Source: Escherichia phage B9-1
Length of the DNA: 64,000 nucleotides
Reading direction: 5' to 3' (one strand)
Sequence record: OQ420740.1
Shown piece by piece: positions 12,124 through 30,810 of the stretch; the stretch's first letter is position 1; every line of letters starts with the position of its first letter. The translations under genes and the position numbers were made by a program. Under the pieces are notes generated by a model. It was not told where the DNA came from. It searched no databases and was given only the letters and a program-made list of their open reading frames with translations.

Positions 12124-12134
12124 GGGGGCGTGCA

Positions 12135-12515: not shown

Positions 12516-13513
12516 TGGCAGAGTACAGACGTAGAACATGGCGATTATTATTTGGTCGTCCTGTAGAGCATGGCGGTAAATCAAAAACCAATATCCCAAA
12601 ATCTGTTGAAAAGAAAGGAGAGAGTGATTCCGGAGTTTATGAGATTAGCTCGGACACTGGTGCTGCCAATATAGAGTTTGACATACAAAAGGACAATACC
12701 AAAGAGCCAAACAAAGGCTATGTGACAGTTTACAACCTGTCTGACGATACAGTTAACTATCTGGATATGCATCAAGCTGATGCTCTTGCAGTTATGTTTG
12801 AGGCTGGCTATGATAATGAGAACCAGTTGATATTCTCAGGAACTGTAGAGTTTGTTGAGGACAGATGGGAAGGTCCGACCAGAAAAACTAAGTTCATCTT
12901 TGGGGATGGCACTGAGAACATCATTAAGTGCCAAAGCACAAGGTCTTATCAGAAAGGTACACCTCTGAACTCTGTGCTTAATGACCTGCTGAAGGATATG
13001 AACTTGCCAAAAGGCAGGGTTGTTGGTTTTGGAAACCAGACTTTACAATACTCTATGGCTTTCTCTGGGAACACTGCAGAGAACCTCCGCAGGTTTGCAA
13101 GGCTGACAAACTCAACATTCAGCGTTCAGGACGGTGCTCTATATTGGACCAAGGTTGGAAAAAGGTTCAAGGACTCTGTATTTGAAATAAGTGCAGAGTC
13201 TGGGATGCACGGATCACCCACACCTAAAAACCCAGAACCTGCTAAAAAACGAAAAGCTAAAGCTGCTGCGAAAGGTGGCACAAGTAAGAAAAAGAAAAAC
13301 CCGAGAGAGGATGTTGGTCTTACTGTAACCACATGTCTTAACGGGGCTATCCTCCCAGAGTCCACCATTTATCTTAAAAGCAGGCAATACACAGGCTTCT
13401 ATAAGGTGATCACAGTCCATCATAAGGGCACCATAGAAGGCGGTGATTACACTACAGAGCTTGGCCTTGGGGAAACAATAGGTGGAGTTGTTGACAAAAC
13501 TGAGGAGGTATAA
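12515..13513 (+). CDS. baseplate hub-like protein (candidate)
   Basis: 332 aa, lysine-rich internal segment (PAKKRKAKAAAKGGTSKKKKNP), precedes spike-like gene with TAATG coupling; hub call is from position only. Confidence 0.35.
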   Translation: MAEYRRRTWRLLFGRPVEHGGKSKTNIPKSVEKKGESDSGVYEISSDTGAANIEFDIQKDNTKEPNKGYVTVYNLSDDTVNYLDMHQADALAVMFEAGYDNENQLIFSGTVEFVEDRWEGPTRKTKFIFGDGTENIIKCQSTRSYQKGTPLNSVLNDLLKDMNLPKGRVVGFGNQTLQYSMAFSGNTAENLRRFARLTNSTFSVQDGALYWTKVGKRFKDSVFEISAESGMHGSPTPKNPEPAKKRKAKAAAKGGTSKKKKNPREDVGLTVTTCLNGAILPESTIYLKSRQYTGFYKVITVHHKGTIEGGDYTTELGLGETIGGVVDKTEEV

Positions 13514-14190
13514 TGGCAATAAATAGGAAAGATGCTGCTGTAAGATCCTTTATAGAAAAAATAATGAGGGACTACCACACCAGTATCAGGGCCAGAGTTG
13601 TCAGTGTAGATTACAGTATCCCTTCTGCAGCCGTGCAGCCGATAGCTGAAACCACGTTTGATGACGGAGATGTTGAGAGATACCCTCTTATCTATGATGT
13701 TCCAATCCAGGTGATGTCTGCAAACAGTGGGAAGGCAAGGTTAACACTACCAATTAAGGCTGGGGATGTTGTAGGGTTGCAGTTTTCAGAGAGAAATGAA
13801 AACAATAACGATGATCAACAAACTCACGGCCTATTTCCAGGGTGGGCAATAACCTCTGTTCATTCAGACTCGAATGCTTTGCAGATCGATCCTGATAATG
13901 TAGAGTTATGGAATGATAGGGTTTATTTTAAGCTAACACCCTCTGGTGATTTTGAGCTTCAAACACCTGGTGGGACATTACGGTGCGACAGTAGCGGGGA
14001 GTTTTCTTTCACCAACGGGGCTGCCAATTTACGAGCTGCTGTGGATGGAAATATCAGAATGAATGGTGCCACAATAGACCCATCAGGTAGAATTATAACG
14101 GCTGCTGGTGTGGATTTGGACTCATTCTATGCAGAATATAAAGGTCATACCCACTCTTGCCCTGATGGCGAGACAAGTGGACCGCACTAA
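13513..14190 (+). CDS. baseplate central spike, gpV-like (candidate)
   Basis: 225 aa; OB-fold-like segment (LTLPIKAGDVVGLQF) and C-terminal GHTHSCPDGETSGP resembling the His-rich metal-binding apex of P2 gpV-type spikes. Confidence 0.5.
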   Translation: MAINRKDAAVRSFIEKIMRDYHTSIRARVVSVDYSIPSAAVQPIAETTFDDGDVERYPLIYDVPIQVMSANSGKARLTLPIKAGDVVGLQFSERNENNNDDQQTHGLFPGWAITSVHSDSNALQIDPDNVELWNDRVYFKLTPSGDFELQTPGGTLRCDSSGEFSFTNGAANLRAAVDGNIRMNGATIDPSGRIITAAGVDLDSFYAEYKGHTHSCPDGETSGPH

Positions 14191-14202
14191 TAGAGGGCTT
14201 GA

Positions 14203-14919
14203 ATGGCTACGCTTTATAGTGATATATTGATGGACCCACAGACAGGTGATTTGGCGATAGACAAAGGTCTTGAGTTGATAGATTCAAACCAAGTAAGTCT
14301 GCGCCAGCGCCTGTGGATGAGGTTTAATACATGGAAGGGGAGCTGGTACTTTGATGAGTTGTTTGGCTTCCCTTATATGGACTTTCTCAGTAAGAAGGTC
14401 ATGAAGACTGTTCTTGATAACAAGATTATGGAAGTGGCAAGACAAGAGCCAGATGTGCTAAACATCATAAACTTCCAGTCCACTATGGATCGAAGATCGA
14501 GGACATACCAAGCGTTCTTTGAGGTTGTTACCAAGGAGAACGAGATTGTAAGGCTGGCTTTCGTAGGTCTTGATCAGTTTACCTACCCACAGCCTGATGA
14601 CGGGGCAACCTCTCTTTGTGATGATGAAGGTTGGATTAAGTGGGCTAATAAACTGTACTACCTGATCAACTTCAGATTGCCTAGAACTGGAGATGCTACG
14701 TGGTGGAACCAGTATGCTGGTCCTGAGATGGAAAACCCGATCCCTGTAGGTTCTCTGTTGACTCAGGATAAAGATCTGCTGATGACTGATGCAGAACAAA
14801 CCATTAACCGCAATACCTGGACGCTTGCTCCAGATGAGCGCGAATATTCTGGTGTTATTGCTACCTCTAATGATGAGGCTATTGCCAACCAGTCTGGTCG
14901 TGCTATTGATGTTAACTAA
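14203..14919 (+). CDS. baseplate wedge protein, gpW/gp25-like (candidate)
   Basis: 238 aa directly after spike gene; N-terminal segment (GDLAIDKG...SLRQRLWMRFNTWKGSWYFDELFGFPY) resembles W/gp25-type baseplate proteins as recalled. Confidence 0.35.
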   Translation: MATLYSDILMDPQTGDLAIDKGLELIDSNQVSLRQRLWMRFNTWKGSWYFDELFGFPYMDFLSKKVMKTVLDNKIMEVARQEPDVLNIINFQSTMDRRSRTYQAFFEVVTKENEIVRLAFVGLDQFTYPQPDDGATSLCDDEGWIKWANKLYYLINFRLPRTGDATWWNQYAGPEMENPIPVGSLLTQDKDLLMTDAEQTINRNTWTLAPDEREYSGVIATSNDEAIANQSGRAIDVN

Positions 14920-14928
14920 GGAGAAATC

Positions 14929-15597
14929 ATGGCTGTAGCTTATCCTACAATACCAATCCCAGATCTTGAAGATGCAGAAACAGTCTTGAGTGATGACTTC
15001 TTGGTTGTCAACCAGACTGACGGGACAAGAAAGGCTAAGATTGATGATGTTGTCAATGATCTTAGCATTACTAAAATAGTTTATTTCACAGAGGGCGGTT
15101 ATCTTAAGAGCAAGAAGGATTTTGCTTATGATCCGGAAACTAAGCGCTACTACACATGGAATGGAGATTATCCTAAAATAATCCTCCCGGATTCTACTGT
15201 AGAGGGTGCCGGAGGTGTGTCTGCAAAAGCATGGTCTGTTTTTGGAGAGCTTGCTGCAACTTCTTCAGGTAGGATAGTTGATTACGGCTCTATTGGTGGT
15301 CAACTTGACATGGATCTTGACGTTGCAGACACGTTTAAAGTTCGGCTCACTTCAAACACCACAATCTCTTTTGAAAATCAAACAGAAGGGCTCGACGGAG
15401 TGGCAAGAACTATAACTGTATGCATAACGCAGACCTCGGGTGGTAACAAAGTTTATTGGCCTGACAATGTTAAATGGGCCTACGGAAGAGATCCTATCCT
15501 AACATTTACAGCTGGTGCAACAGACATTTTCAAGTTGGAAACATATGATAATGGACTAACTTGGTACGGGGCACTGATCATCGCAGGAGCTATCTAA
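14929..15597 (+). CDS. tail fibre-related protein sharing an N-terminal domain with the 1479-aa fibre
   Basis: N-terminal about 100 aa align by eye with N-terminus of ORF 18232 (DDFLVVNQTDGTRKAKIDDVV vs DDYLVVQQPDLTRRVKIGDVV; FTEGGYLKSKKDFAYDPE vs FKEGGKLNGPMDFAYFEE). Confidence 0.5.
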   Translation: MAVAYPTIPIPDLEDAETVLSDDFLVVNQTDGTRKAKIDDVVNDLSITKIVYFTEGGYLKSKKDFAYDPETKRYYTWNGDYPKIILPDSTVEGAGGVSAKAWSVFGELAATSSGRIVDYGSIGGQLDMDLDVADTFKVRLTSNTTISFENQTEGLDGVARTITVCITQTSGGNKVYWPDNVKWAYGRDPILTFTAGATDIFKLETYDNGLTWYGALIIAGAI

Positions 15598-15598
15598 G

Positions 15599-18196
15599 AT
15601 GCGTATTCAACACAACATTGATAACGTATTTCAGATGATCGAGGGGCACAGGAAGTGCCTCGATAACAACACAGGTATTACCAATCTCCCTACACAGAAC
15701 AAACTGGTAAACCAGGATGGACTTATAGCGTCAGGTTGGTCAGGAAGTAAGATAAACAATGATTGGGCAATGCATGAGTCCCAAGCTGTGTTGATTCTGG
15801 GATACATTGAGGCATACAGGGCATCAAAAAGCGATTTTTATCTAGACAGGGCCAAAGAGGCTTGGGAAGCCTACAACAGTCATCTTCTGGGCGTATATGC
15901 AGTAGAAAGTAAAATGCAAAGATTGTCCCACTACCCGTTATCCACAGATGGGGTTCCATCGCATGGTGGGTTTAAAGATGTGGTTGTGTCTTTTAACAAA
16001 GGTAGAGGAAAAATCCCAGCAGGATCCCCGACATGGGGAGAATACTTGGACAAGGCTTTTCAGGCGTATAACGGTGTTTTAGGAAGAAACACTGTAGACT
16101 CTGATGTTTACGGCGGCACAGATGCTAATCCTAATTGGACAACTTCCGGATTAAGTTGGTGGGTTGAGTGGTATATAGCATGGGATGGTAACCGCTATTG
16201 GGCCAACGGTAGCATAGCCGACAGTGGTCATACGTCTGCAGAGTTCGGCACAATCCAACTGCAAGATAAGGGTGTTACAGGCAACCATAAGGTCACCTAT
16301 TGTGTGAGATTGCCTCAAGAGCAGGGAGGATCGGTGATACCTGCTGGATCCCCTGTAATTGTAAATCCTATAAATGTGGTTGCAGACAATCAAGCCCCAG
16401 AGTTAGACGGGGAAGAGATGTGGTGTGACGCTTGCTATCAACTCTATACCTTGACAGGTGAGGAAAAGTATTACACCGCGTTTAAGCAGTCTTACAACAA
16501 GCTGCTTAATTTCAGTGATATAAATGCCTACGACAAACTGTTTAGAAAAACCACGTTAATTAAGGCACCGTTCACGGATGGTACTTGTCTCGTCGCAGGA
16601 ACAGTTCCTGTCATGAGTAGGGACAGTGACGGGTATATCAATTTTAGAATGAACGCTCGCCAGCCTTGCGAAATAATCCAAAAAGGGACTACATACAAAA
16701 TAGGCAGAGATGCTGAAATTGTTATGAATTTCGGAGGGGAAGGGGTTCTGTTCCAGCCACATTTCATCCTTAATGATGGCAACAATAACAAAAAACAGTA
16801 CAGAATAGGTGTCCCTTTCGGAGGAGCAGAGGTAACAGAAACAGTTGCCAAGGTTACTGATTTTGTAGAGGTGGTTGGTAAAGACGGTAACCCATATCTC
16901 TTGCCAAAAGAGGAAAACATTGCCGTAAGCGGTGGCGCTAGTGTTAGTATGCAGTATGATACCGACATTTACAACCACTCTGACAACTTCACCCGTTGCA
17001 ATATAGTAAAAGGCAAAGTAACTTTCAATTTTGGAAGAGAGATTTCTTTAAACTCAGTAACTTATCGATCAGATGATGAGATGGTAAGGGTCAAATTTCT
17101 TGACAAAGACCGTTGGTTATGGTATGCTGATCTATATGCCACTAATGGACAATGGATAACAGAAACTCTTACTCTGGGAGATTTTAAACTAGACCCTACA
17201 CAACCTCATCACACCGAAGAGGAGATTAAACCTTTCTTTGCTAACACCAAAGGGATCACCTCCGTAGATTTCAGTCTGAGCGACAGGCAGATAGGCAATG
17301 GCTTGTTTGATCTGTATTGCGTCAACACACTGCCGCAATTTTATATTGCTGATAGGGATGCTTACCTGATCTGGTTTAGTGTATGGATGGCAAGCAATAC
17401 AGAATCAACCGCTAAGGTTGGCGATTGTTATGTCAGAAACTACAAGCAAGGTGCATACAGGCACACGCCGGGTGTGTTCCCTGCCGGAAAGGTGATAGAT
17501 AAGGAAAATTATCTCTTAGAGGAAAGGCCAAGTTGGCCCTATCCTGGTATGCAATACCCAGCAGTCTACTGCATGGGTGCAGAAAACATAGACCGCCATA
17601 GATTGTCAAATACAATAGGCTTTCTGTATGACTCTCAAGTCTGGTATAACAATACATTTAAGACAGAGGGTCCAGTTGCCTCACGTTATGTATGGCAGAG
17701 AGGTAATGAAGGGTTGACTGGTTGGTGGGAGATGGTAGATAACTCTAAACTCCAGTCAAGATCTTTTGTTGCTGCGTGCCGCACAATATATGAGCTAAAG
17801 AAACATAAAGAGCCTGTTGATGAAAGACTATTCCTGTTCTGCCAGAAATGGGCATGGTTCCTCAACAGATTCCAGTCATCCCATTCAGGAAATTTGCCTA
17901 CAGACTTTAACACCTCTGGTGGATACTCTTATCAAGATAGAGGAGATAGGATGTGGGTGGTAGGTGAATGGCTTGCAGGTTGCTGCTGGCTAGGTCTGTG
18001 CGGGTATTCAGAAACAATACCTCAAATAGATATTGTTGTAGAAGCCTGTATGAAGCTACTGCAAAAGCACCACTTTATTAATGGGGATAATGTTTTAAAT
18101 GGCTGCTGGGCAGTTTCTGATCCGGTAGGCTATCACTCTGGCGAAATCCTTCGCGGTCTTGGCCTTTATGCTCAATACCGTGGATTGTACCTTTAA
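15599..18196 (+). CDS. large tail-associated protein, candidate polysaccharide-degrading enzyme
   Basis: 865 aa, Trp/Tyr-rich; segments such as AVLILGYIEAYRASKSDFYLDRAKEAW and CDACYQLYTLTGEEKYYTAFKQSY resemble helical-hairpin motifs of (alpha/alpha)6 glycosidase folds; coupled to the upstream adaptor-like ORF. Confidence 0.4.
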   Translation: MRIQHNIDNVFQMIEGHRKCLDNNTGITNLPTQNKLVNQDGLIASGWSGSKINNDWAMHESQAVLILGYIEAYRASKSDFYLDRAKEAWEAYNSHLLGVYAVESKMQRLSHYPLSTDGVPSHGGFKDVVVSFNKGRGKIPAGSPTWGEYLDKAFQAYNGVLGRNTVDSDVYGGTDANPNWTTSGLSWWVEWYIAWDGNRYWANGSIADSGHTSAEFGTIQLQDKGVTGNHKVTYCVRLPQEQGGSVIPAGSPVIVNPINVVADNQAPELDGEEMWCDACYQLYTLTGEEKYYTAFKQSYNKLLNFSDINAYDKLFRKTTLIKAPFTDGTCLVAGTVPVMSRDSDGYINFRMNARQPCEIIQKGTTYKIGRDAEIVMNFGGEGVLFQPHFILNDGNNNKKQYRIGVPFGGAEVTETVAKVTDFVEVVGKDGNPYLLPKEENIAVSGGASVSMQYDTDIYNHSDNFTRCNIVKGKVTFNFGREISLNSVTYRSDDEMVRVKFLDKDRWLWYADLYATNGQWITETLTLGDFKLDPTQPHHTEEEIKPFFANTKGITSVDFSLSDRQIGNGLFDLYCVNTLPQFYIADRDAYLIWFSVWMASNTESTAKVGDCYVRNYKQGAYRHTPGVFPAGKVIDKENYLLEERPSWPYPGMQYPAVYCMGAENIDRHRLSNTIGFLYDSQVWYNNTFKTEGPVASRYVWQRGNEGLTGWWEMVDNSKLQSRSFVAACRTIYELKKHKEPVDERLFLFCQKWAWFLNRFQSSHSGNLPTDFNTSGGYSYQDRGDRMWVVGEWLAGCCWLGLCGYSETIPQIDIVVEACMKLLQKHHFINGDNVLNGCWAVSDPVGYHSGEILRGLGLYAQYRGLYL

Positions 18197-18200
18197 CATA

Positions 18201-18220
18201 GGGGGCTGTTTGCCCCCTTT
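18201..18220 (+). terminator. weak terminator / attenuator hairpin
   Basis: Stem GGGGGC / GCCCCC, loop TGTTT, short T run (TTT) only. Confidence 0.3.
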
Positions 18221-18231
18221 CAGGAGAAAGA

Positions 18232-21200
18232 ATGGCTGATATTAAAGTTGTCAGAATTGAATCTCTTCCTGCCACTACCGCAGTGACAGAGGATGATTAC
18301 CTGGTTGTTCAACAACCAGACCTGACCCGTCGTGTGAAAATTGGCGATGTTGTCCATGTGGATGGGACTGTTTCTCATGTAATCTCCTTTAAGGAAGGTG
18401 GTAAGTTAAACGGCCCAATGGATTTTGCCTACTTCGAAGAGGAAGATCTATACCTGCGTTGGAAAGGCGAATTTCCACACACTGTTCCTGCACTGTCTTC
18501 ACCATATTCTGATGGTGGGATTACCGATGCTGCATGGATGGTATATACAGACCCGTCCTTAAGGGAGGAGCTGGAGTCTACCATTGGTGCGTCTATGATT
18601 ATGACAGCCGAAGGGCAGTCTGTCCAGGATGTAATGGATGTTACTGTTCAGACAGCCAACGATGCTAAAGCACTTGCACAGCGGGTAGATTTTGGTACAG
18701 TACATACTGTGGGCGATGTTGTTCACCTTGTCAACTTTGTTGGCCCTGCAGTTATTGAAGAGGGACGAACCACTAACTATCCTTCCGTAGCAGCTGGTGA
18801 AAAATTTCTGAATGGTGTGGTATCTCGTCGTGATACTACAACTGTTGATGGTATTTTCCGTGGCGCTACTTCCGGAGCCATGTATACCATTGCAGTAACA
18901 AACGGTGTGGTAACAACAAAAAGAATAGCCCTTCGTGATGAATTTAAACGCCTGGAGGCAAATAATCCAACAAGAACAGTTATCCGTGCTGGGGATGATG
19001 TAAACACAGCAGGGTACTTGCAGCTTGATGCAACAGGCCGTTGGGGTATGTGGAACCAACAGACAGCTTCGTGGCAACCTCTTGCTATAGAGCAGGGCGG
19101 CACAGGAGCTAGAGATGCCGCAGGTGCACGCATTAACCTAGGTGCTTTCTATAAGCAACGTGCAGCCCTTGAGGCAAATTTCAATATCAATAACCTGACT
19201 GGTAATCAGGATGGTGTATACTACCAGCCTATGACTGCTAATGCAACTGAGGCAAATGGTTACCCTGCGGGTTCTGGTGCGGGTCACCTAATTGTTTGGC
19301 AGAACAATGCTAACGGCGGCACAGGCTGTCGTCAGGAATACTACCCATTCTCTAACGTAGATGTTTGGTATTTGAGAACCTATCAGGCCAACACAAACCA
19401 GTGGACTGCATGGCAGCCGATGGTCAGACCTCGTAACGATGAGACCTTTAGATCGCACATCGGTCTTGGGTCTAGGAATTCTCCTACCTTCGGGCACCTT
19501 TACTTATCTCAAAGTTCTGCTGATGTCAAGTCGGCATCTGGCATTGTTAACGGGGACAAGTACAGTGCTGACGGTGTCCTTGAGCATGGGTATAGGATCT
19601 ATTCCGAGGTAAGAAACGACAATAAGGCGTGGTTAACAATCCACCTGCACAAAGGTGCAAAAGGATCTGAAACTCATAGATATTTAGGTTTCCGCGAAGA
19701 CGGCGTATTAGACTGCCCTAAATACATGCAGGTTGGGGATCTTACTGGTCAGCTGACAAACTGGGGACTCGGAGAATGGATCCGTAGTTCAGGAGCAGAA
19801 AGAGGGTTCTGGGGATCCAAGAAAGCCGCCAAGATGGTCATCTGGGATGGCGGGATGGATGAATCCGGTAATGGTACTCTAGAATGGGGTGTTTATAACA
19901 ACCGGAAGGCCAAGTGGGAACCTTTACCTCAAGCCGCAGGTGGTACTGGGGCTACAACTCTAGCAGATGCTCAGAATCTGTTCAAAGTTCCTATAGCAGC
20001 AGGTGTAAAAGACTTCTTAACACTGCCAAGAACCGCAGGAATGGAAGATGGGAAATACTACCCGATCATCGTCAGAACAGATCCGTACTATGCTCCAGCA
20101 ACTGGCACTGATATTACCATAGTTACCAGATCGTCATCTGGAAATGACCCTATGAACTGTGCTACCTTACAGTGTCACTATAGAACTGGAGGATGGACAG
20201 ACAGAGGAGGCTCTTTCTACGGGGTAGTAAATTTCTACCAGAATGAAAAAGCAATTCTTGGGATGGTTGCTCCAACAAGGGGTAAACAAGAGTATGTTGC
20301 TTTCTATGTGGAGGCTCGTGCTTTCCCTGTCAGCATATACGCAAGTAGAAATGTTGTCGAAGTGTTTACCAGAGAGCAAGATTATCAGGTCGGCTCTGTA
20401 ACAAACAATCAGGACGGTGTTAAGTTCGTTTCACCTCTCCAGTCGGCAGACTTGAATCTTGCTATTCTTGGAGATAACAATACAAACACCAGACCTATTG
20501 TTGACTTCAAAGGCACCTCTGGGTTCTACACTGGCGGCGGCACACAGTGGCACTATATAGGCACTGCTGAGCGCTATGCAGTGATGAGCAAAATGAACAT
20601 GCCAAAAGTCGAGCTATGGGCAGACGGTCTTGACTATTTGTGCTACGGCAGTCCTAGAAAGGCGTTATTCTCTAATGCAGGATTCCAGTGTGCATCAGAC
20701 GGGACAGAAGACCTGACTAACGGTACGTTTACCTCTAAATGCGGTAATGGTGCTGGCCTCAAAGGACAGGCAGAGTTCAGATCTACTCCAGAAGCTGGTC
20801 AAGTTATTGTTCGTGATGTTGTAGGTTCTGCTCACAGATTCTACAATTTCAACAAAGATGGTACTTTCTCAGCACCGGGTGGTTTTGTATGTCATACTGG
20901 TGCAGATTGGAACAATCAGTTCGGGAATAATAATCCGTCCAAAATACTGGCTGGCAATGTCAACGGACCTGAAGGTTCAATGGTTGTTGGCGGGTTGTCT
21001 GTGGCATTTTCTGGAAACTATGCTTTCCAGATGGCAGGCCGTTTAGATCAGCTGTACACCCGTTCCATAGAGCAGGGTAACCACAGAGCGTGGAACAAAG
21101 TTATTCAGCACCGTGGTCAAGGGTTGGGTACTAGTGACCTTAACGATTACAAAGCGGATCGCGAAGGTATTTACCATCAAGAGGCAAATGCCAACGCCAC

Positions 21201-22671: not shown

Positions 22672-23003
22672 TGAATACTTTTACCCTTGGGTTTACTGGT
22701 AGGGAGGATTTTAACGGTTTCATGGACGAAATCGGCTTTTACGAGAATGAGGTGTTGCAAAACACCCTTCTTGTAGAGGTTGTCGGGTTCATTTACACAG
22801 AAACTGAAGACACTTATGAGGCCGAGGATGAGTTTGGCAACATGGTTGTCTACCCAGTTTGCGAGAAAAGTAAATTGTTTTATGTCAACGTTCTGGCTCT
22901 GGACGAAGATGCAGAAAATATCATCTCTAAAAGCGGAAAAATTGTAGATCCGATAAGGTTGAACATGTTCGACCCATCAGTATCTACCTTGGAAGCACTT
23001 TAA
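22671..23003 (+). CDS. hypothetical small acidic protein, possible fibre chaperone
   Basis: 110-aa ORF overlapping fibre stop (TAATGA), followed by terminator. Confidence 0.4.
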   Translation: MNTFTLGFTGREDFNGFMDEIGFYENEVLQNTLLVEVVGFIYTETEDTYEAEDEFGNMVVYPVCEKSKLFYVNVLALDEDAENIISKSGKIVDPIRLNMFDPSVSTLEAL

Positions 23004-23016
23004 AGTATAAAGTATT

Positions 23017-23047
23017 GCCCTCGCTTCGGCGAGGGCTTTTTGTTTGT
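23017..23047 (+). terminator. rho-independent terminator
   Basis: Stem GCCCTCGC / GCGAGGGC, loop TTCG, then TTTTTGTTTGT. Confidence 0.75.
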
Positions 23048-23048
23048 A

Positions 23049-23077
23049 TTGCGTATTAACTTAAAATCTGGTAAAAT
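23049..23077 (+). promoter_or_regulatory. sigma70-like promoter (TTGCGT, 17 bp, TGGTAAAAT)
   Basis: -35 at 23049-23054, -10 TAAAAT at 23072-23077 preceded by TGG; about 30 nt upstream of ORF 23109. Confidence 0.55.
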
Positions 23078-23108
23078 AACTATCATAATTGTTTAACCTG
23101 GAGGCATA

Positions 23109-23699
23109 ATGTTTTTATGGGAAAGACCTAGATATCTTCCAGATATTAGATTGGAGTTGCTGGCAGATATTGTTACGTTTAAAAGCCCGTTTACAGGTAA
23201 GACGCAAAAAGTAACCTATGCCACGCCCAACTGGAAAGGAACTTTGACGGTTTCCAATATAAGTGAGTCCCAGCTATTGGAGCTTAAAAGTTTTGTTGAT
23301 CAGGTTTACAAAGATGGAAACATTTTTCTTATCAAGGCTTATGGTCATTCAGTTACTTCCAATGAGCCAATCGCTCTAGGACCAACTGGTAATGACGATT
23401 TTTTGAAGACGGTTGGTTGGGAACCGAACAGAGATATAGTCAGGGCTGGGGATAAAATATCTGTCAATGATGAGTTGAAAGTTGTGACATCCTCAGTGCG
23501 AAGTGATGGTGTGGGGGCAGCTGTTATAAACATATCACCAAGACTTAGAAAACCTATTGCCGCAGGGGATACTATGAAGATAATAACTCAATCTCCGAAG
23601 GGTAGATTTCATATCAGGGATCTCTATAAGATTAAGCAAAAGGTTGATGCTATGCAGAAAGGTGATAATATAGTTATCAACTTTTTTGAGGATTTCTAA
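23109..23699 (+). CDS. distal tail protein (first gene of lambda/GTA-like tip cassette, candidate)
   Basis: 196-aa ORF with RBS GGAGG; first of a 196/183/141/1279-aa set whose sizes and order resemble GTA g12-g15 and lambda M-L-K-J. Confidence 0.4.
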   Translation: MFLWERPRYLPDIRLELLADIVTFKSPFTGKTQKVTYATPNWKGTLTVSNISESQLLELKSFVDQVYKDGNIFLIKAYGHSVTSNEPIALGPTGNDDFLKTVGWEPNRDIVRAGDKISVNDELKVVTSSVRSDGVGAAVINISPRLRKPIAAGDTMKIITQSPKGRFHIRDLYKIKQKVDAMQKGDNIVINFFEDF

Positions 23700-23700
23700 G

Positions 23701-24252
23701 ATGATAAGAGCGCCATTAGATAATTTATTTCTTGAAAAGCTAGAGCTTGATAGTGTTGAGATCTTAATTGCCGCAAAGCTAGAGCTGCCAACAGGAACTG
23801 TCAGGGTGTGCTCAGGCACTGGTGTTGTGGTGATTGAGGGGCAGCATTTTATAGGGATAGGTGGATCAGCAACATTGACTGCTGTATCTGAGAAAGATGC
23901 CACCAACTTTGGGTCTGTGGTAGCAACATTGAACGGGTTTGATCCCAAGTATGTAGGTGATCTGCTGAAGACGGAGTATTCGGGTTGTCGTGCCACGTTG
24001 TATATCACGGCTATGGAGAATGGTTTACCTGTTACAACCAATGGCTTGTTTGACGGCCTTATAACAGACATGGCTATTCAGACAGGGGAGAATAGTGCTT
24101 TGTCCATATCCATATCTTCCATCTTCAACAGCTGGTTAAGAGGTTTTCCTTATCGATACACAGAGGAGAGCCATAGCTCAAGAAACGATAATGACAGATT
24201 TTTTAAATATGTGGATCAGGTGGCAAGCCGCCCGATCATTTGGGAGGTTTAA
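23701..24252 (+). CDS. distal tail protein (gpL / DUF2163-like position)
   Basis: ATG 23701 right after upstream stop; 183 aa; Gly-rich beta-type composition; call is from position only. Confidence 0.35.
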   Translation: MIRAPLDNLFLEKLELDSVEILIAAKLELPTGTVRVCSGTGVVVIEGQHFIGIGGSATLTAVSEKDATNFGSVVATLNGFDPKYVGDLLKTEYSGCRATLYITAMENGLPVTTNGLFDGLITDMAIQTGENSALSISISSIFNSWLRGFPYRYTEESHSSRNDNDRFFKYVDQVASRPIIWEV

Positions 24253-24677
24253 TGAGCACACACCCTCGTTTAGTGGACTGGCAAGAAAGATTGTGGAAAG
24301 TGTTTGACGAAGAAGCCACCGTCCCGTTTGAATGGGGATTCCACGATTGCTGCACTTTTGCGGCTAAGTGTGTTGATGCCCAATACGGAACAGATTTTCT
24401 TTCTAACTTTGAAGGAACGTATAAAACAGAGTTGGAAAGCAAAAGATGGTGCATGCTTCGTTTCAAAACCACACATCTGCCTACTATTTTTGATCTCTTT
24501 TTGACTCGACTGGATACTCCTAAACAGGTTCAGCGTGGTGATATTGTTATTTTCGAAGGTCTGAACGGGCTCACCGCTGGTGTGTTCTGGAACAACCAGA
24601 TTTGGGCGAAAGGTGATAAAGGGATCTTTATGTTCGACATGAAAGATTCTATCGTTGTTGATGTCTGGAGGTATTAA
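24252..24677 (+). CDS. small NlpC/P60-like tail protein (gpK / GTA g14-like, candidate)
   Basis: ATG 24252 overlaps upstream stop (TAATG); contains WGFHDCCTF (candidate catalytic Cys in a D-C context) and GDIVIFEG; about 141 aa as for phage NlpC-family tail peptidases. Confidence 0.35.
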   Translation: MSTHPRLVDWQERLWKVFDEEATVPFEWGFHDCCTFAAKCVDAQYGTDFLSNFEGTYKTELESKRWCMLRFKTTHLPTIFDLFLTRLDTPKQVQRGDIVIFEGLNGLTAGVFWNNQIWAKGDKGIFMFDMKDSIVVDVWRY

Positions 24678-27600
24678 TGCCAATTGCAATGATTGATAAC
24701 ATCGTTGCTTCTGCAAGATCTTCGAGCTATGACTGGAACGCATCCAAGGCAGCTCTGGCTGACAGCCTGAACACTGTTACCACCAGAACCCTTGATAAGA
24801 TTTTCGAAGGCAACAAATCTTACAGAAGTCAACAAGATAGACAAAAACTTCTCAGATCTTCTGCTGCACCTTGCTCTGTAGTATATGGGAAGACACGCAC
24901 ATCTGGATTGCTTGCGTTTTTAGAGCAGGACAGGGACAGAACCCTTCATTGTGCTATTGTTCTTGCCAATCATCCCTTGGAAGGTATAGAAGATATACTT
25001 ATCGACGGTAATCCTATTTCCTCGTATGGGGATTTGGTATCGTGGGAGTTGCATAATGACAGGAAAACCTCTGATCCTTTCATGGGCACACACTGCCCTT
25101 CGTGGTCACCAGACATGATAGGTAGAGGGATCAGTTGGCTACGTGCCAGCTTTAAGTTTGACCCTAACAAGTTTCCTTTTGGGTTGCCAAACGTTACACT
25201 CGTCAAGGTTGGTAAAAAATGTTATGATCCTCGTATCAGTAAAGAGGTGTATACCAACAACGCTGCCTTGGTGATTCTGGACTATCTAAGAACGTACCTT
25301 AAATGTCCTGACGAAACCATCAACTGGGAGTCCTTCAAGGAAGCTGCCAACATATGCGACGAGGCTGTAAAAAACGCGGACGGAACCAGTGAGCGCCGTT
25401 ACACCATTAATGGTGAGTTCGACATGGACGAAGCACCAGCAAGTATTATGGCAGAAATGCTGAAGGCTTGTGGTGCAGACCTTAGCTATGTAGCTGGCAA
25501 ATACGGTCTGCTGGTAGGTGCATACTATGGCCCGGCAACAATGACACTGAGTGAGGACTGTGTTTGCGGTGAGGTTAAGATCTATCCTGAAGCCTCCTTC
25601 GACAAAAGATCAAACACAATAACTGGGAGATTCACCAGTCCAACCAAAGGGTATTCTGAAACAGACTTCCCATCGGTGTTCGTACCTGAATGGGTAGAGA
25701 AGGACGGAGAAAGAAAGATAATTGATATAGATTATCGTTTTGTTACCAGTCCTTATCAGGCTCAGCGTGTTTCCGCAATATTCTTAAGACGTGCCAGAGC
25801 TGGCAGGATTATTGAAGTAACCTGCAATATGAGGGGTTTTAAATTTAAGCCTGGGCGTTACGTTACGATGGACCTCCCAAGTATTGGTATAGTGGGCCAA
25901 GAAATGAGGGTTCTTGAATGGGAGTTCACCAAAAAGGGCGGTGTCAAGGTAAAACTCCGTCAAGATGCTAAAGAGTGGAATGATGCCACAGGGCAACTTC
26001 CGGATTCTGGAGATGTGGATATTCCGATATCCCCGTCCGGTGTAGCTCAACCGCAAAACTTCAGATACTCTGTTCTTCAAGCTGGGGAAGTAACTCATGG
26101 TGTTTTGGCTTGGGACAACGTTGGAACTTATGCTCAAAATATTGTGCAGGTAAGAAAGAACGGAGAGATTATTTGGACAGCACAAACAGTCGAGCAGTTT
26201 GTCCGCGTAGAAGGATTGACCAAAGGGTCATACACAGCAACCGTGGTTGCAACATCTTATAAGGGTGGTGTATCTCCAGAAGCCTACTGCGAGTTCAACA
26301 TTCAAGCACCTGAAGCTCCTGTTTCTGTAGAAGTTAAGCAGGGATACTTTGCTATCACCTTGATTCCGCACAGCAGGGACTTAGCAAGTGTAAGCACCCA
26401 GTATGATTTTTGGACATCTGGTATGACAAGGTTGCCGGACACAAGTGATGCAACCGTTACTTCAAAAGCCACCCGTATGGGTGTTGGTTCAACTTGGACA
26501 TCTGAAGGTCTGCAGAACGATAAGATTTATTATTGGTATATTCGAACCACAAACGCTTTTGGTAGTTCTCAGTTTGTAGAATGCGCTGCACGCTGCTACA
26601 CCTCTATTGAAGATTTGATGCCTCAGATAGATGCTGAATTTAAAAAGACAGAAACTTATAAAGAGTTGATGAGCACTTTAGATTCCTCTATCGAGGAGGT
26701 TGAAAATCGTGTCACAGAGCTTAACAAGTACATGGACGGAAGGGTAGATGAGGCATTCCAACAACTTGGAGATAGGATAGGTGCGGTAGTTACAGAGACA
26801 ACTCAGAAGTTTGAGGATGTCAATGGAAATATCACAGCTCTGGATAGGAAACTTGTTGCTGCACAGAACAAGTTCACCAACGATCTGAACACTGAAAGTG
26901 GAAGACTGGCATCCCTGATCGAGACAACCAATAAAGCAACCACTGATCTTCTGAACAAAAAGACAGAGGCTTTAGACGAGAAATTGGTTGCAGCCAAAGG
27001 GGAGTTGGTAGAACAAATAAGTGGTGTGGAGAGCGGATACCTTGCCGGAGATAAAACTCTAGATGGCAAGATCAATACCCAGAGAACGGAACTTGATGCA
27101 AGCATCTTAAGCACCAACCAGGCGACAGTGGATCTTCTCAACAGGACATCTGAAACTCTGGATCAAAAGATCAGTCAGACAAACGCGACGGTATCTAAGA
27201 ACTATACCACCCTTGATGGTAAGATAACTACCGCAAAAACTGATCTCAATACCTTGATTGCCAATACCAACAAGGCCACCACAGATTTGTTGAATCAGAA
27301 AACCTCTGCACTGTCGGAGCAGATAACTTCTGCACGTGGGGAAATTTCTACCAACAAACAGGCGATTAAGGATTTAGATGGGAAGCTGACCTCCACAAAA
27401 ACAGCACTGGACGCTACAATCTCCGATACCAACAAAGCAACCGTGGATCTTATTAACGGCACAGCGTCAGCTATTCGTCAAGAACTTGCTGTTGCTAAGC
27501 AGGAGATCATTGATGATGTCGGTGATGTGTCAGAGCTTAGAGCTGCAGTAGCTACAACATCTAAGGCTGTGACAGACTTAGAGGGCAAAGTAAATGCTCA

Positions 27601-28516
27601 ATGGGGCACAAAAATACAGGTAGACTCCGCAGGGAATAAGTATGTGGCAGGTATCCAGTTAGGCATGGAAGGCTCTGGAGGCCAAGTTCAGTCATATTTC
27701 ATGGTTAGCGCAAACAACTTTGCGGTATACAACCCAGGCAATGGAACAGCAACCCTTGCTTTCGCAATCAAGAACAACCAAGCGTTCTTGAAAGACGCTT
27801 TTATAGAGAACGGCACGATCTCTTCTGCCAAGATCGCGCAAGAAATTTCGTCAAACAACTACGATGGCAATGGGTACCACAAATACGGTTGGTATATTAA
27901 CAAGAACGGGCACGCCCAGTTTATGGATGTGTGGGTGAAAGGTAACATCAACGCTAGTGCAGGTAACTTCACAGGGGCAGTTAACGCCACCAGTGGTACC
28001 TTCCGTGGGGATGTTTATGCCAACAATGGTAGCTTTAGAGGGACCATAGATGCAACAGGAGGTACATTCCGTGGACGTGTAGAAGCTTCCGTTATCCGTG
28101 CTAACCAGTTCGAAGGTGCGATTGTTGCACACAGGACTTACGGAGATTGTGCTCCAGTATATAACTCGCAGCAAAGGGTTTGCCGTTGGAGGTGGAGATA
28201 TGTGGACAACGTGCAAGGCCAAGGTAAAAACGTAACATTCTTCTTTAAACTGAACGGTACACTTGCTAATTCTCAATTAAACGCGTGGATAGCAGGTCAT
28301 CAGCTGCTTGCTGGCAAGAAGTATTTTAATAACAACGATGGCATGTGTGCAGTTGGGATAACAGGTCTAGGTGAACAAACTATAGACATTATTATCGAGA
28401 TTTACACACCCTGGTCAACAGGGAACGTGACAGGAGTTACAATATCTTGTCCTACAGTCGTTGTAAGTCGTTCTAACTCAAGTTTCCAGGGACCTTGGAA
28501 CGAGTCTCACGACTAA
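24677..28516 (+). CDS. central tail fibre / host-specificity protein, lambda J-like (candidate)
   Basis: 1279 aa; four tandem 45-aa repeats in a helical stalk (about 26830-27600); C-terminal segment QWGTKIQVDSAGNKYVAGIQLG...FMVSANNFAVYNPGNG resembles the conserved region of J-type host-specificity proteins as recalled. Confidence 0.5.
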   Translation: MPIAMIDNIVASARSSSYDWNASKAALADSLNTVTTRTLDKIFEGNKSYRSQQDRQKLLRSSAAPCSVVYGKTRTSGLLAFLEQDRDRTLHCAIVLANHPLEGIEDILIDGNPISSYGDLVSWELHNDRKTSDPFMGTHCPSWSPDMIGRGISWLRASFKFDPNKFPFGLPNVTLVKVGKKCYDPRISKEVYTNNAALVILDYLRTYLKCPDETINWESFKEAANICDEAVKNADGTSERRYTINGEFDMDEAPASIMAEMLKACGADLSYVAGKYGLLVGAYYGPATMTLSEDCVCGEVKIYPEASFDKRSNTITGRFTSPTKGYSETDFPSVFVPEWVEKDGERKIIDIDYRFVTSPYQAQRVSAIFLRRARAGRIIEVTCNMRGFKFKPGRYVTMDLPSIGIVGQEMRVLEWEFTKKGGVKVKLRQDAKEWNDATGQLPDSGDVDIPISPSGVAQPQNFRYSVLQAGEVTHGVLAWDNVGTYAQNIVQVRKNGEIIWTAQTVEQFVRVEGLTKGSYTATVVATSYKGGVSPEAYCEFNIQAPEAPVSVEVKQGYFAITLIPHSRDLASVSTQYDFWTSGMTRLPDTSDATVTSKATRMGVGSTWTSEGLQNDKIYYWYIRTTNAFGSSQFVECAARCYTSIEDLMPQIDAEFKKTETYKELMSTLDSSIEEVENRVTELNKYMDGRVDEAFQQLGDRIGAVVTETTQKFEDVNGNITALDRKLVAAQNKFTNDLNTESGRLASLIETTNKATTDLLNKKTEALDEKLVAAKGELVEQISGVESGYLAGDKTLDGKINTQRTELDASILSTNQATVDLLNRTSETLDQKISQTNATVSKNYTTLDGKITTAKTDLNTLIANTNKATTDLLNQKTSALSEQITSARGEISTNKQAIKDLDGKLTSTKTALDATISDTNKATVDLINGTASAIRQELAVAKQEIIDDVGDVSELRAAVATTSKAVTDLEGKVNAQWGTKIQVDSAGNKYVAGIQLGMEGSGGQVQSYFMVSANNFAVYNPGNGTATLAFAIKNNQAFLKDAFIENGTISSAKIAQEISSNNYDGNGYHKYGWYINKNGHAQFMDVWVKGNINASAGNFTGAVNATSGTFRGDVYANNGSFRGTIDATGGTFRGRVEASVIRANQFEGAIVAHRTYGDCAPVYNSQQRVCRWRWRYVDNVQGQGKNVTFFFKLNGTLANSQLNAWIAGHQLLAGKKYFNNNDGMCAVGITGLGEQTIDIIIEIYTPWSTGNVTGVTISCPTVVVSRSNSSFQGPWNESHD

Positions 28517-28525
28517 CCTTTAAAG

Positions 28526-28550
28526 CCCCGCTTCGGCGGGGTTTATTTTT
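28526..28550 (+). terminator. rho-independent terminator
   Basis: Stem CCCCGC / GCGGGG, loop TTCG, then TTTATTTTT. Confidence 0.75.
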
Positions 28551-28559
28551 ATGCTCAGA

Positions 28560-28588
28560 TTGACTATTGTTACAAAATTTGGTAAAAT
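28560..28588 (+). promoter_or_regulatory. sigma70-like promoter (TTGACT, 17 bp, TGGTAAAAT)
   Basis: -35 at 28560-28565, -10 at 28583-28588; followed by GGAGGAG RBS and GTG start at 28622. Confidence 0.55.
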
Positions 28589-28621
28589 ACCTTGTAGAGA
28601 TTTTCATACCGGAGGAGTGAC

Positions 28622-30112
28622 GTGGCTAAGTATGGATTGACAGAGGCTGGTTTCGTTATACCAACTCTAAATGACCTAATCGTTGAAACTAAGCAAAGCC
28701 TGATCCGTGCTTTTGGCGAAAACTTCAACGTACAAAGTAACTCCGTTGCAGATAAGCTGACCACTATCTTCAACGAGCGAGAGTATCAACTTATTCTTAT
28801 GGCAGCATCTGTATACGCATCGCAGACGCTGTATGGGGCAGAAGGTATTTACCTTGATGAACTTCTTGGAAGGCAAGGTATTTATCGAAGAGGCCGTTCT
28901 AAATCATCAGGTACTTGCCAGTTGACAATTAACACAACTGTGCCGTACAATATGATTTATGATTCCAAAACCTACACGCTGGACAGTGGCAACTTTGTTC
29001 TTAGCAACGATGTGCAGGTGGCGGGAAATCTTATTGCTCACAGAATAAACGCTCCAGACCTAAGAATTGGGAAATACAACTTTCAAATTACCAACCAGAC
29101 AGATGGAAGTATCAAAACAAAAAGTCTGGTTTTAACAGATAAGGCTCTGGACTCTTCTGATTTGCCAAGCTTTTACGGCGAGATTAAGCAATTCATTGTC
29201 GATAATACAACCCTGCTGAATGATGATTTAATTCAGATAGATATGTTGACAGGGACGTTGTGGATAGGGTACAATTCGAATCTTGATCAAGTTGGACTTA
29301 ATAGCAGGGTAGATTTCAGAGTATCCCCGATTGTAGGGGAAAGAACTATCACCCTAGATGTTATCGCTAACGAGGCTGGTGAGCTGTCAAGAGAGGCAGA
29401 AACCGTGACAACAATGTCACCTACTCCCAGTGGATTTATCAAGCTTACCAACCGAGAAAGATTCAATGAGGGCAGGGATGTTGAGAAAGACTCTGAGTAT
29501 CGCCTAAGAGCTTCCAGCACTAAGCAGTTAACATCTAAAGCTACCCGCCCTGCAATTCTTAGCGCTGTAAGCGAGGTGAAAGGTGTTGAGAAAGTAAGAG
29601 TGTTCTCCAACAACACCGATAAAACGGATGCGAAAGGTATACCACCTTATAAGTTTCAAGTGGTGGTGTTTGGTGGTGCAACAGAGGATATCTGTCAGGC
29701 GCTGTATCAAACCATAGCTTGCACAAACAGAACTTATGGGAATATCTTCTACGATATTACCACATCGGACGGTCAGACTGAAAGGATTTATTACTCCAAG
29801 GCAAATACCTACCGCCTAGATGTAAGAATTACCTACTCAGGTGCTGCGCTTTCCACAACCGAAAAAGATGCCATTGTAGAGGCTCTTTTGCAGGTTGTTA
29901 ACGGACTGGATGTTGCAGATACGTTGTACAATATTCAATTGGTTGGTGCTGCATCGGCTGCTGTGTCAATAGGCAGATTTAACAGACTTGTAATTCAAGT
30001 CAAACCTGTGGGGGCCTCTGATGAAGCTTACACCACAAACGATATTGTTGCAAACATGACTGAGGTGTTTGATCTAGACGAAAGTAATATAACTTTCCAA
30101 CAAACTATTTAA
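28622..30112 (+). CDS. baseplate J-like wedge protein (candidate)
   Basis: 496 aa, GTG start; N-terminal MAKYGLTEAGFVIPTLNDL and later AEGIYLDELLGRQGIYRRGRSKSSG resemble the Baseplate_J family pattern; followed by gpI-like and fibre genes as in P2/Mu. Confidence 0.45.
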   Translation: MAKYGLTEAGFVIPTLNDLIVETKQSLIRAFGENFNVQSNSVADKLTTIFNEREYQLILMAASVYASQTLYGAEGIYLDELLGRQGIYRRGRSKSSGTCQLTINTTVPYNMIYDSKTYTLDSGNFVLSNDVQVAGNLIAHRINAPDLRIGKYNFQITNQTDGSIKTKSLVLTDKALDSSDLPSFYGEIKQFIVDNTTLLNDDLIQIDMLTGTLWIGYNSNLDQVGLNSRVDFRVSPIVGERTITLDVIANEAGELSREAETVTTMSPTPSGFIKLTNRERFNEGRDVEKDSEYRLRASSTKQLTSKATRPAILSAVSEVKGVEKVRVFSNNTDKTDAKGIPPYKFQVVVFGGATEDICQALYQTIACTNRTYGNIFYDITTSDGQTERIYYSKANTYRLDVRITYSGAALSTTEKDAIVEALLQVVNGLDVADTLYNIQLVGAASAAVSIGRFNRLVIQVKPVGASDEAYTTNDIVANMTEVFDLDESNITFQQTI

Positions 30113-30123
30113 GGCGGTGAGAT

Positions 30124-30810
30124 ATGGCAGAGATTAAGTCGGATGTCAACCACATCCACACTCTGCCAGATTTTGTTCAGGGAGGTCTTGATTACCTCCC
30201 TGGGGATTTTCTGGCTGAGAAGGTTAATTTAGTCACATTCTTAACCGTGTACCTTAAAAGGTTGGAGAATGTTGATAAAATGCTGGTAGGCTTGGCTGAA
30301 GGAAGACTGCTTAACAATGCCAGCGGGAGATACCTTGACGAAGTTGGTAATCAACTTGGTATTCTTAGGAATGGTCTTTCAGACGCGGATTTTCGTGCTA
30401 CGCTGATTATTCAGCAGGCAGCATCATCAAGAGGTGGTACTCGCGAAGATGTCATCTCCACCTTACGACAGTTGTTCGGAAGAGATAATTTCGATACGTG
30501 GAAAGGTGACAATTTCAGGTTTGACATAAACATTAGAAAAACTTGCTTTGACATATTGCAGTCTATCGACCAGATCTTAGATATGCTGCCATTGCCTTGT
30601 CATTTGCGTCTTACGGAGTCGCAAGGGCAAGCTTTTGGTTTTGAAGGAGACTCTACAGCTCTCGGCTTCGGATCAGTGTGGGAAGAAAACCAGTTCGGGG
30701 TTGGTGGGCTGGCTACTTTGCTATATGTTCCTGACGTAAGACCTGATTGGGATACCACAACTATTTATTGTGAAAGTATTACAGTAAACGCAACTAGACA
30801 GGAGGGTTAA
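30124..30810 (+). CDS. baseplate/tail protein, gpI (DUF2313)-like (candidate)
   Basis: 228 aa after J-like gene; motif YLDEVGNQLGILRNG resembles the conserved L-D-x-W/V-G-x-x-L-G core of P2 gpI-type proteins. Confidence 0.35.
   Translation: MAEIKSDVNHIHTLPDFVQGGLDYLPGDFLAEKVNLVTFLTVYLKRLENVDKMLVGLAEGRLLNNASGRYLDEVGNQLGILRNGLSDADFRATLIIQQAASSRGGTREDVISTLRQLFGRDNFDTWKGDNFRFDINIRKTCFDILQSIDQILDMLPLPCHLRLTESQGQAFGFEGDSTALGFGSVWEENQFGVGGLATLLYVPDVRPDWDTTTIYCESITVNATRQEG

Follow-up and report, generated by a model that had tools for sequence, protein, structure and literature searches.

The DNA examined here is a stretch of 64,000 nucleotides (nt) of Escherichia phage B9-1 (sequence record OQ420740.1), referred to as the window. 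In this stretch the gene of the sheath initiator (W) is separated from the gene of baseplate wedge 2 (J) by 13.7 kilobases (kb), from the W stop at 14919 to the J start at 28622, and the intervening DNA carries two groups of genes on the plus strand, designated cassette 1 (14929-23003) and cassette 2 (23109-28516). An earlier reading made from the letters of the DNA alone (the sequence-only reading) had pointed out a separation of about 13.7 kb, which holds, and had described both groups as fibre cassettes. Cassette 2 indeed includes a fibre, but its four genes make up a complete siphovirus tail-tip module, not recognized in that reading, which consists of a distal tail protein (Dit), a gpL-like hub protein, a DUF6950 protein, and a J-like protein that is both hub and central fibre.

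The tail-tip module and its genomic surroundings

Sequence searches of the PDB with the three small proteins of cassette 2, performed with single sequences and with four-sequence profiles, returned no match, and fold comparison was therefore used for these proteins. A homolog search with Dit alone retrieved only near-identical rV5-like proteins, and alignments that included siphovirus homologs gave usable depth. The Dit gene (23109-23699) encodes 196 amino acids (aa) and matches phrog_1302 (E value 5e-49), and the AlphaFold model of the protein (predicted local distance difference test score, pLDDT, of 86) matched T5 pb9 over its full length (Foldseek E value 1e-8, template modeling score 0.62) and also the Dit proteins of R4C, Chi, and JBD30. 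The next gene (23701-24252) encodes a hub protein of 183 aa of the type of lambda gpL and gene transfer agent (GTA) g13, whose model (pLDDT 75) matched the N-terminal hub domain of T5 pb3 (1e-6), lambda gpL (7.5e-5), a virion chain of RcGTA (1.6e-4), the T1 tip (1.7e-4), and the R4C baseplate; some homologs of this protein carry the label DUF2163 in UniRef. The DUF6950 protein (24252-24677, 141 aa, Pfam 6e-34) is encoded at the gpK/g14 position and is named 'cell wall hydrolase' in some genomes. Its DCC and QRGD motifs are invariant, and because no histidine is invariant across four diverse homologs, a peptidase activity of this protein seems doubtful.

The largest gene of the module (24677-28516) encodes the J-like protein of 1279 aa, which corresponds to rV5 gp37 and contains the Pfam domains Ig_J, Ig_J_second, and Phage_Tail_Tip. 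The protein matches lambda gpJ (PDB 8iyk, 4e-28) and the NCBIfam family lambda_TipJ (7e-44). Its N-terminal half resembles hub proteins of siphoviruses and 'megatron' proteins, with residues 34-787 aligning with siphovirus J proteins and a weak direct Pfam match to the hub domain Phage-tail_3 (E value 0.09). The gpM-gpL-gpK-gpI-gpJ set of lambda, pb9/pb3/pb4 of T5, and g12-g15 of RcGTA have in common with the window the Dit fold, the hub fold of gpL, the pb3 N-terminal part and the GTA protein, and the immunoglobulin-like and tip domains of gpJ. Moreover, the order of Dit, hub, small protein, and large J or 'megatron' protein in the window is that of the siphovirus loci compared. In relation to lambda, sequence similarity is confined to the fibre half of J, no gpI equivalent is present, and DUF6950 replaces gpK. 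An origin of cassette 2 by internal duplication of the phage's own tube initiator and hub was also considered and rejected, as neither phmmer nor blastp gave a match to either of them.

A nucleotide search with the region 13000-31000 found at least 110 GenBank records covering at least 80% of it at 90-97% identity, the closest being vB_EcoM-ECP26 (97%), and the gene order of the window is that of the annotated genomes EmilHeitz (Bas49) and HMD-6. Nucleotide identity and synteny thus place the phage among the rV5-like members of the genus Vequintavirus. The same region has about 92% identity over 18 kb to 18 unannotated GenBank records that bear the name 'Campylobacter phage' (among them MG065655 C2 and MG065654 C15), which look like rV5-like coliphages that were mislabelled or co-isolated. 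In HMD-6, an additional ORF of 541 aa (7303-8928) is found between the tail tube and assembly chaperone genes; it is absent from the corresponding position of the window (7844-8008) and from EmilHeitz, and may represent a mobile element.

The genes around the insert encode a baseplate core of the FelixO1/P2/Mu type, which runs from tube initiator, plug, and hub through spike and sheath initiator to wedge 2 and wedge 1, and then to a fibre and its chaperone. The tail tube initiator (11212-12123, 303 aa) matches Pfam Dit_like (7e-23) and has homologs at the equivalent position in the phages CR3, SPLA5a, and pEp_SNUABM_01 (hereafter pEp); it is followed by the baseplate plug (12135-12515, 126 aa; Pfam Pam3_gp18, 9e-18) and the baseplate hub (12515-13513, 332 aa; phrog_196 'baseplate hub', 2e-83). 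Directly after the hub gene lies the central spike of the gp138/gpV type (13513-14190, 225 aa; Pfam Gp138_N, 1.4e-9), with 46-61% identity to the spike genes of relatives, and then the sheath initiator of the W/gp25 type (14203-14919, 238 aa), which matches the solved protein of phage PhiTE (PDB 9mjn/9cuy, 5e-61), phi92 gp139 (3e-16), Pam3 gp21 (0.003), and phrog_120. On the far side of the insert, wedge 2 of the J/gp6 type (28622-30112, 496 aa) matches a solved 'wedge 2' (1e-158), phi92 gp145 (9e-56), and Pfam Baseplate_J (4e-9), and is adjoined by wedge 1 of the I/gp7 type (30124-30810, 228 aa; solved 'wedge 1', 2.5e-67; phi92 gp146). The wedge genes J and I are thus side by side, and W and J are not adjacent. 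These matches bear out the V, W, J, and I identities previously proposed for the ORFs at 13513, 14203, 28622, and 30124, and the cryo-electron microscopy (cryo-EM) assignments of phi92 gp135 to gp139 (gp135 being the tube initiator) and of gp145 and gp146 agree with the core genes of the window (PMC13450770).

Further downstream are a fibre of 690 aa (30810-32882), with an N-terminal domain and a TIM-barrel of the non-contractile tail sheath protein (Pfam NCTSP, 1e-79), and a short tail fibre of 346 aa with its Tfa chaperone of 194 aa (32895-34534; Caudo_TAP, 8e-12, and the Bas49 annotation). The baseplates of phiTE (PDB 9cuy/9mjn) and phi92 (PDB 21vq; PMC13450770) have core parts and gene order identical to those of the window, including the Mu-like short fibre. 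The phiTE-type proteins, unlike those of the window, come from a genus in which W and J are contiguous and have a sheath initiator of 177 aa, whereas phi92 carries other fibre genes (gp140-144) between W and J. In wedge 1, a separate observation concerns Erwinia phage pEp_SNUABM_01, whose gene (21493-23682) encodes about 730 aa instead of about 215-228 aa; homology is limited to the first ~225 aa, and a fibre-like domain appears to have been fused to the protein.

The insert is delimited by transcription signals, all on the plus strand. A terminator hairpin after the tape-measure gene (11145-11162), corresponding to rV5 t049/P048, begins the unit that extends from the tube initiator to ORF 22671. 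This unit is closed by an intrinsic terminator (23017-23049, with a hairpin at 23017-23036 and a T-run; rV5 t041), behind which the late-promoter box TGGTAAAATA (23069-23078; rV5 P040) precedes cassette 2. Another intrinsic terminator (28523-28553, with a hairpin at 28523-28544 and a T-run) closes cassette 2, and the promoter TTGACT-17-TAAAAT of the wedge/fibre unit (28560-28589; rV5 P036), which overlaps TGGTAAAATA at 28580, follows it. P040, P036, and t041 are predictions made for rV5 (Table S4 of PMC3606486). Four copies of the decamer TGGTAAAATA are present in the window (4431, 7956, 23069, and 28580), all on the plus strand, against 0.19 expected by chance. Both terminators proposed in the sequence-only reading (23017-23047 and 28526-28550) are therefore real, as is the promoter it placed before cassette 2, which is a late-type box of the phage; the promoter that drives J and I behind the second terminator had been missed.

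Cassette 1 begins with a fibre adaptor (14929-15597, 222 aa; Pfam Tail_spike_N, 3e-10; phrog_7760), which has homologs at the same site in SPLA5a (41% identity) and Phapecoctavirus. The adaptor is followed by a fibre or enzyme-like protein of 865 aa (15599-18196), annotated in Bas49 as a lateral tail fibre with glycosidase domains and represented at the same site in SPLA5a and Phapecoctavirus by full-length homologs with 34-35% identity. The long fibre (18232-22671, 1479 aa) also has an N-terminal Tail_spike_N domain, and its distal 420 aa are common to side tail fibres of 9g-like siphoviruses (residues 1060-1478, 41-45% identity to side-fibre C-termini in three 9g-like contigs). The N-terminal domain shared by the adaptor and the long fibre is that of TSP1/gp66 in the branched tailspike adaptors of CBA120 and G7C, and the likeness to these adaptors is limited to it. 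The adaptor gene starts 9 nt after W, the later genes are packed or overlapping, and cassette 1 has no promoter of its own and is co-transcribed with the hub, spike, and W genes. Consequently, the earlier description of two self-contained cassettes applies to cassette 2, with its own promoter and terminator, and does not apply to cassette 1, which is packed behind W. The ORFs previously listed for cassette 1 and for the spike, W, J, and I genes, as well as the limits of cassette 2, were all found where the sequence-only reading had placed them.

The small ORF that ends cassette 1 (22671-23003, 110 aa) is homologous to an ORF of 92 aa that directly follows the side tail fibre gene in 9g-like contigs, and it is present only with the long-fibre allele of 1479 aa. 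Long-fibre alleles of 1265-1272 aa end in Peptidase_S74, as does rV5 gp41, and in these genomes (the locus was read in L096/L097, 5513-9409) ORF 22671 is absent and the Dit gene comes next. Because the genomes with the Peptidase_S74-type allele do not have it, ORF 22671 is an allele-specific partner of the long-fibre tip, and the two alleles exchange a tip with a separate partner ORF for a tip with a built-in chaperone domain. The possibility that ORF 22671 arrived with cassette 2 was rejected, since its 9g-like homologs follow the side-fibre gene and it is missing with the S74-type allele. The long-fibre tip is probably exchanged with side fibres of 9g-like siphoviruses, and both the side-fibre tip and the central tail tip of these siphoviruses have counterparts in the insert.

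Origin of the module and occupation of the W-J boundary

A search of all phages identified siphoviruses as the best relatives of the J-like protein outside Vequintavirus, with 44% identity over 88% of the length for Nonagvirus HdSG1 and 46% identity over residues 34-709 for Salmonella phage SW-37. In addition, the N-terminal half has matches in Vibrio siphoviruses of 47 kb and in 'megatron' proteins from phages of alphaproteobacteria, and since the siphovirus matches span this half, the conservation includes the hub and not the fibre half alone. In the 9g-like phage HdSG1, genes 00036-00039 encode proteins of 196, 194, 144, and 1042 aa directly after the tape-measure gene, versus 196, 183, 141, and 1279 aa in the window, and tblastn showed that the four window genes are collinear with them at 31, 40, 45, and 48% identity (J over residues 48-787), the 183-aa protein corresponding to HdSG1_00037 and the DUF6950 protein to HdSG1_00038. 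Among full-length relatives, the product of the J gene of this locus (11848-14976) is the closest to the rV5 J-like protein, and in the BASEL study no known receptor could be matched to the central-fibre receptor module of HdSG1, JenK1, and HdK1. In Salmonella SW-37 and Vibrio 1243, too, homologs of the four genes are collinear behind the tape-measure gene. The HdSG1 module is on the tail axis, whereas that of the window is preceded by a late promoter of its own, has a fibre gene on one side and the wedge genes on the other, and is 12 kb away from the myovirus tape-measure gene.

The association of the module with siphovirus-type loci was also evident in IMG/VR, where 80 loci with a relative of the 183-aa protein were found, three of them rV5-like and 77 on non-rV5 contigs of 5-84 kb (mostly 20-60 kb). 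The module was collinear in all 77 non-rV5 loci, two of which are on contigs that end after the second gene; in most of them Dit is closely preceded by the end of an ORF of 800-1200 aa, and none of the 77 has a homolog of the rV5 genes for sheath, tube, or wedge within 10 kb. Among myoviruses, tblastn did not detect cassette 2 in Seunavirus, Mydovirus, Henunavirus, Certrevirus, Plateaulakevirus, or Phapecoctavirus. The J-like protein (at least 80% identity) is present in about 115 phage records, compared with about 117 that have a Vequintavirus-type wedge 2, and a more divergent rV5-like lineage, with a 183-aa protein 87% identical, carries cassette 2 at the equivalent site. Among the myoviruses examined, cassette 2 is limited to the genus Vequintavirus. 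As the module occurs in siphovirus-type loci, is absent from the other myovirus genera examined, and does not resemble the initiator and hub of the phage itself, the transfer was most likely from a siphovirus to a myovirus, into the ancestor of a single genus. The module was probably acquired from a 9g/GTA-type siphovirus without the tape-measure and tube genes of the donor. Base composition and GC content at third codon positions do not mark cassette 2 as foreign; because the window and the HdSG1 locus have similar values (both ~44.5% GC), composition cannot test the transfer.

The arrangement of W and J was compared in relatives at graded distance using wedge 2 as anchor, with tblastn applied to the module genes and also to the Klebsiella Mydovirus record, whose annotation was unusable. 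W adjoins J in Cronobacter CR3 (Certrevirus), in Erwinia pEp (Henunavirus), and in Escherichia W70 (Septuagintavirus), in which the genes W70_113-115 are consecutive (PMC11370258), and W is directly beside J in the outgroups Vibrio 5P1c and FelixO1. In other relatives the gap is filled: Seunavirus SPLA5a carries an adaptor, a homolog of the 865-aa protein, and a colanidase-like gene; Phapecoctavirus an adaptor, one homolog each of the 865-aa protein and the 690-aa fibre, a tailspike, and two small genes; phiA009 one unrelated gene of 825 aa; and phi92 the genes gp140-144, between gp139 and gp145 (PMC13450770). The proposal that the 13.7 kb represent a secondary insertion was thus borne out by contiguous W and J in three genera of Vequintavirinae and in two outgroups, and the modular gain of host-recognition hardware that had been suggested is also supported. 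The homolog of the 690-aa fibre stands inside the W-J gap in Phapecoctavirus, but after wedge 1 in the window.

The gap between W and J in CR3 and pEp measures about 90 nt and contains a hairpin terminator, a T-run, a TGATAAAATA box, and a Shine-Dalgarno sequence. Equivalent elements, that is, a terminator with a TG(A/G)TAAAATA box, precede J in SPLA5a and, in the window, flank cassette 2 on either side. The W-J boundary is therefore an old limit between two late transcription units. Since insert-free relatives already have a terminator and a late-promoter box at this point, no single operon was broken, and the earlier notion of a split operon stands with regard to the separation of W and J by inserts but not with regard to the operon itself, the inserts being placed at an existing boundary of transcription units. 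The W protein itself differs among these phages, and a C-terminal extension past the conserved 'TWWN.W' end, of about 60 aa in the window, was observed in every lineage with fibre genes inserted after W. W has 238 aa in the window, 205 in SPLA5a, 208 in Phapecoctavirus, 203 in phiA009, and 211 in phi92 gp139 (PDB chain), compared with 177 aa in CR3, pEp, and phiTE, 184 in Vibrio 5P1c, and 139 in FelixO1, in which W lies beside J and has no extension. The adaptor, whose gene comes next, may dock on this extension; the taxa compared are few and not independent.

Considering these results together, we regard it as probable that host-recognition modules were docked at the W-J boundary and that cassette 2 is a siphovirus tail-tip set, acquired horizontally, that would form an appendage on the baseplate. 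The boundary would have served as a docking site loaded differently in every lineage, with one module (the adaptor, the 865-aa protein, and the long fibre, with or without the small ORF) appended to the end of the upstream unit, and the other, cassette 2, forming an autonomous late unit bracketed by two copies of the terminator/late-promoter element. Alternatively, the contiguous W and J of Certrevirus, Henunavirus, and Septuagintavirus could result from deletion of fibre genes, nothing having been inserted in the rV5 lineage, a reading that we consider possible but on balance unlikely. The adaptor and the 865-aa protein have full-length homologs between W and J both in Seunavirus and in the distant Phapecoctavirus, where the identity of the pair (35%) is at the level of the core genes (hub 36%, wedge 2 32%), and the site is also filled in phi92 and in phiA009, all of which would agree with deletion. 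However, the outgroups FelixO1 and Vibrio 5P1c are contiguous, the gap content is different in every genus, and cassette 2 occurs in one genus only and has its closest relatives in siphoviruses, so that deletion can apply at most to the adaptor and 865-aa part of cassette 1. Because both of these genes are at the equivalent site in Seunavirus and Phapecoctavirus, this part is probably old or was repeatedly exchanged.

Conservation and possible role of the module

The four genes of cassette 2 are intact in about 115 genomes and have ratios of nonsynonymous to synonymous substitution rates (dN/dS) of 0.007-0.063, compared with 0-0.04 for core baseplate genes (against EmilHeitz and HMD-6, with dS of 0.13-0.79). 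They are under strong purifying selection that is indistinguishable from that of the core baseplate genes. In the J-like protein, residues 1-650, which comprise the hub, are 98-100% conserved between alleles, whereas residues 650-950 have lower identity, insertions or deletions of 14 and 88 aa, and weak Pfam matches to coiled coils, and the allelic variation in length is confined to this coiled-coil shaft. Relative to HdSG1, the shaft is longer by about 230 aa and the last 130 aa are unrelated. Such variation is typical of exposed fibres that have a conserved end for anchoring and a receptor-binding tip of their own. Besides, rV5 gp37, of exactly 1279 residues, is among the proteins detected by mass spectrometry of purified virions, from which a good, fully tryptic peptide of this protein was obtained.

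Assembled in the manner of a siphovirus tail tip, the four products would form a Dit ring, a hub made of the L-like and J-like proteins, and a long trimeric coiled-coil shaft, and the C-terminal domain of the J-like fibre would bind a molecule of the host surface. The myovirus baseplate would carry this assembly, off the tail axis, as a further appendage for receptor binding, and because all four genes are kept under selection, it can be argued that the whole cone is needed and not the fibre alone. Several points nevertheless weigh against this explanation. The detection of gp37 was weak (4 peptides, 5 spectra, and 4.2% coverage in a run of only 19 proteins), and gp38-40 (Dit, L-like, and DUF6950) are not in the rV5 paper's list of detected virion proteins. 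No structure places the module on the virion, and it was not reported in the cryo-EM maps of Bas49 and Bas54 (PMC12143355). Normally, a Dit ring requires both a tape-measure protein and a tail-tube end, and the module comes with neither; the 183-aa protein, moreover, lacks the ~11 C-terminal residues that all siphovirus homologs conserve, a loss that would fit a changed or lost siphovirus-specific partner and could also mean a changed function. With regard to history, the closest relatives of the donor are only 31-48% identical and the donor is not closely sampled, and the polarity of cassette 1 is ambiguous, as its Phapecoctavirus homologs could mean ancestral presence followed by loss in Certrevirus, Henunavirus, and Septuagintavirus.

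Other roles for the module can be weighed against the same observations. If cassette 2 were carried without building a virion structure, either as a decaying relic or for intracellular interference with the tail-tip assembly of co-infecting siphoviruses, it would be understandable that the module was not located in the cryo-EM maps and that gp37 alone was seen, and weakly, in the rV5 mass spectrometry data; LL12 and BASEL genetics also explain infection of K-12 by a glycan receptor and the lipopolysaccharide (LPS) core, with no need for a porin-type receptor. Nonetheless, we attach a low probability to this reading, since the intact genes, the low dN/dS values, the late (structural) promoter box of the phage, the gp37 peptide from purified virions, and the shaft-length alleles typical of exposed fibres exclude a relic, and nothing directly supports the interference role.

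In siphoviruses such as T5 and lambda, the tail-tip assembly is the trigger of irreversible binding, and a coaxial central fibre below the baseplate that encloses the spike in the Dit/hub cone and acts as a receptor sensor helping to trigger contraction would make use of that property. The module is complete (Dit, L-like, and J-like hub), as a closed cone requires, and the six-fold Dit ring agrees with the symmetry of the baseplate. Yet the hub/spike underside would not resemble the tube-like ring to which a Dit ring binds, no central cone was reported in the Bas49 and Bas54 baseplate maps, and infection of K-12 depends on the LPS core, a dependence ascribed to the short fibres. With the phage's own initiator, hub, and spike already on the axis, a place there below the spike is unlikely for the module, and the coaxial arrangement as a whole is very improbable in our estimation. 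A somewhat better, still rather improbable, idea is that of a complete siphovirus-type cone away from the tail tube, perhaps docked on a fibre head such as that of TC8 and serving as a second receptor sensor that feeds into baseplate triggering. In the Bas49 and Bas54 maps three fibres were placed and unassigned density was seen on the head of the TC8 fibre (PMC12143355), and this density is, speculatively, a candidate docking place. If this were true, a whole tail organelle would have moved between phage morphotypes, with a Dit ring working off-axis.

Implications for rV5-like phages

Outside the baseplate region, a change in the sign of the GC and AT skews and ORFs on the minus strand were observed at 44000-51000 of the window, downstream of the gene of a fibre of 1878 aa, and this block is transcribed in the opposite direction.

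The 'Swiss army knife' fibre locus of the rV5-like myoviruses, which infect E. coli with a broad host range, has often been described; neither the phage with its genes nor the concept of a large locus with multiple fibres is new. Automatic names in GenBank for rV5-like genes include 'central tail fiber J', 'tip attachment protein J', and 'distal tail protein'. The closest published statement that we found is that the N-terminal region of one Vequintavirinae fibre is one that often occurs among central tail fibres (PMC12143355). In the literature searched, the coverage of which was incomplete, nothing was found that describes these genes as a complete tail-tip set taken over by a myovirus from a siphovirus, or the W-J terminator/promoter junction as an insertion site. 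The Phapecoctavirus genome scanned as a phi92-like representative has no cassette 2, and the phi92 paper mentions no tail-tip-like genes (PMC13450770).

The rV5-like phages are among the most often isolated broad-host-range phages of E. coli and are candidates for therapy and food safety. Identification of the module assigns one unplaced 'lateral fibre' of these phages to a conserved set of four siphovirus tail-tip genes, accounts for the trouble that fibre-modelling tools have with the N-terminus of the J-like protein, and offers structural biologists a concrete target in the Dit/hub cone. Additionally, the terminator/late-promoter junction between W and J represents a natural landing pad that could serve the engineering of extra receptor-binding modules. 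With respect to the evolution of tailed phages, the probable acquisition of cassette 2 from a siphovirus would mean that whole multi-protein tail organelles, beyond fibre tips, can pass between non-contractile and contractile phages.

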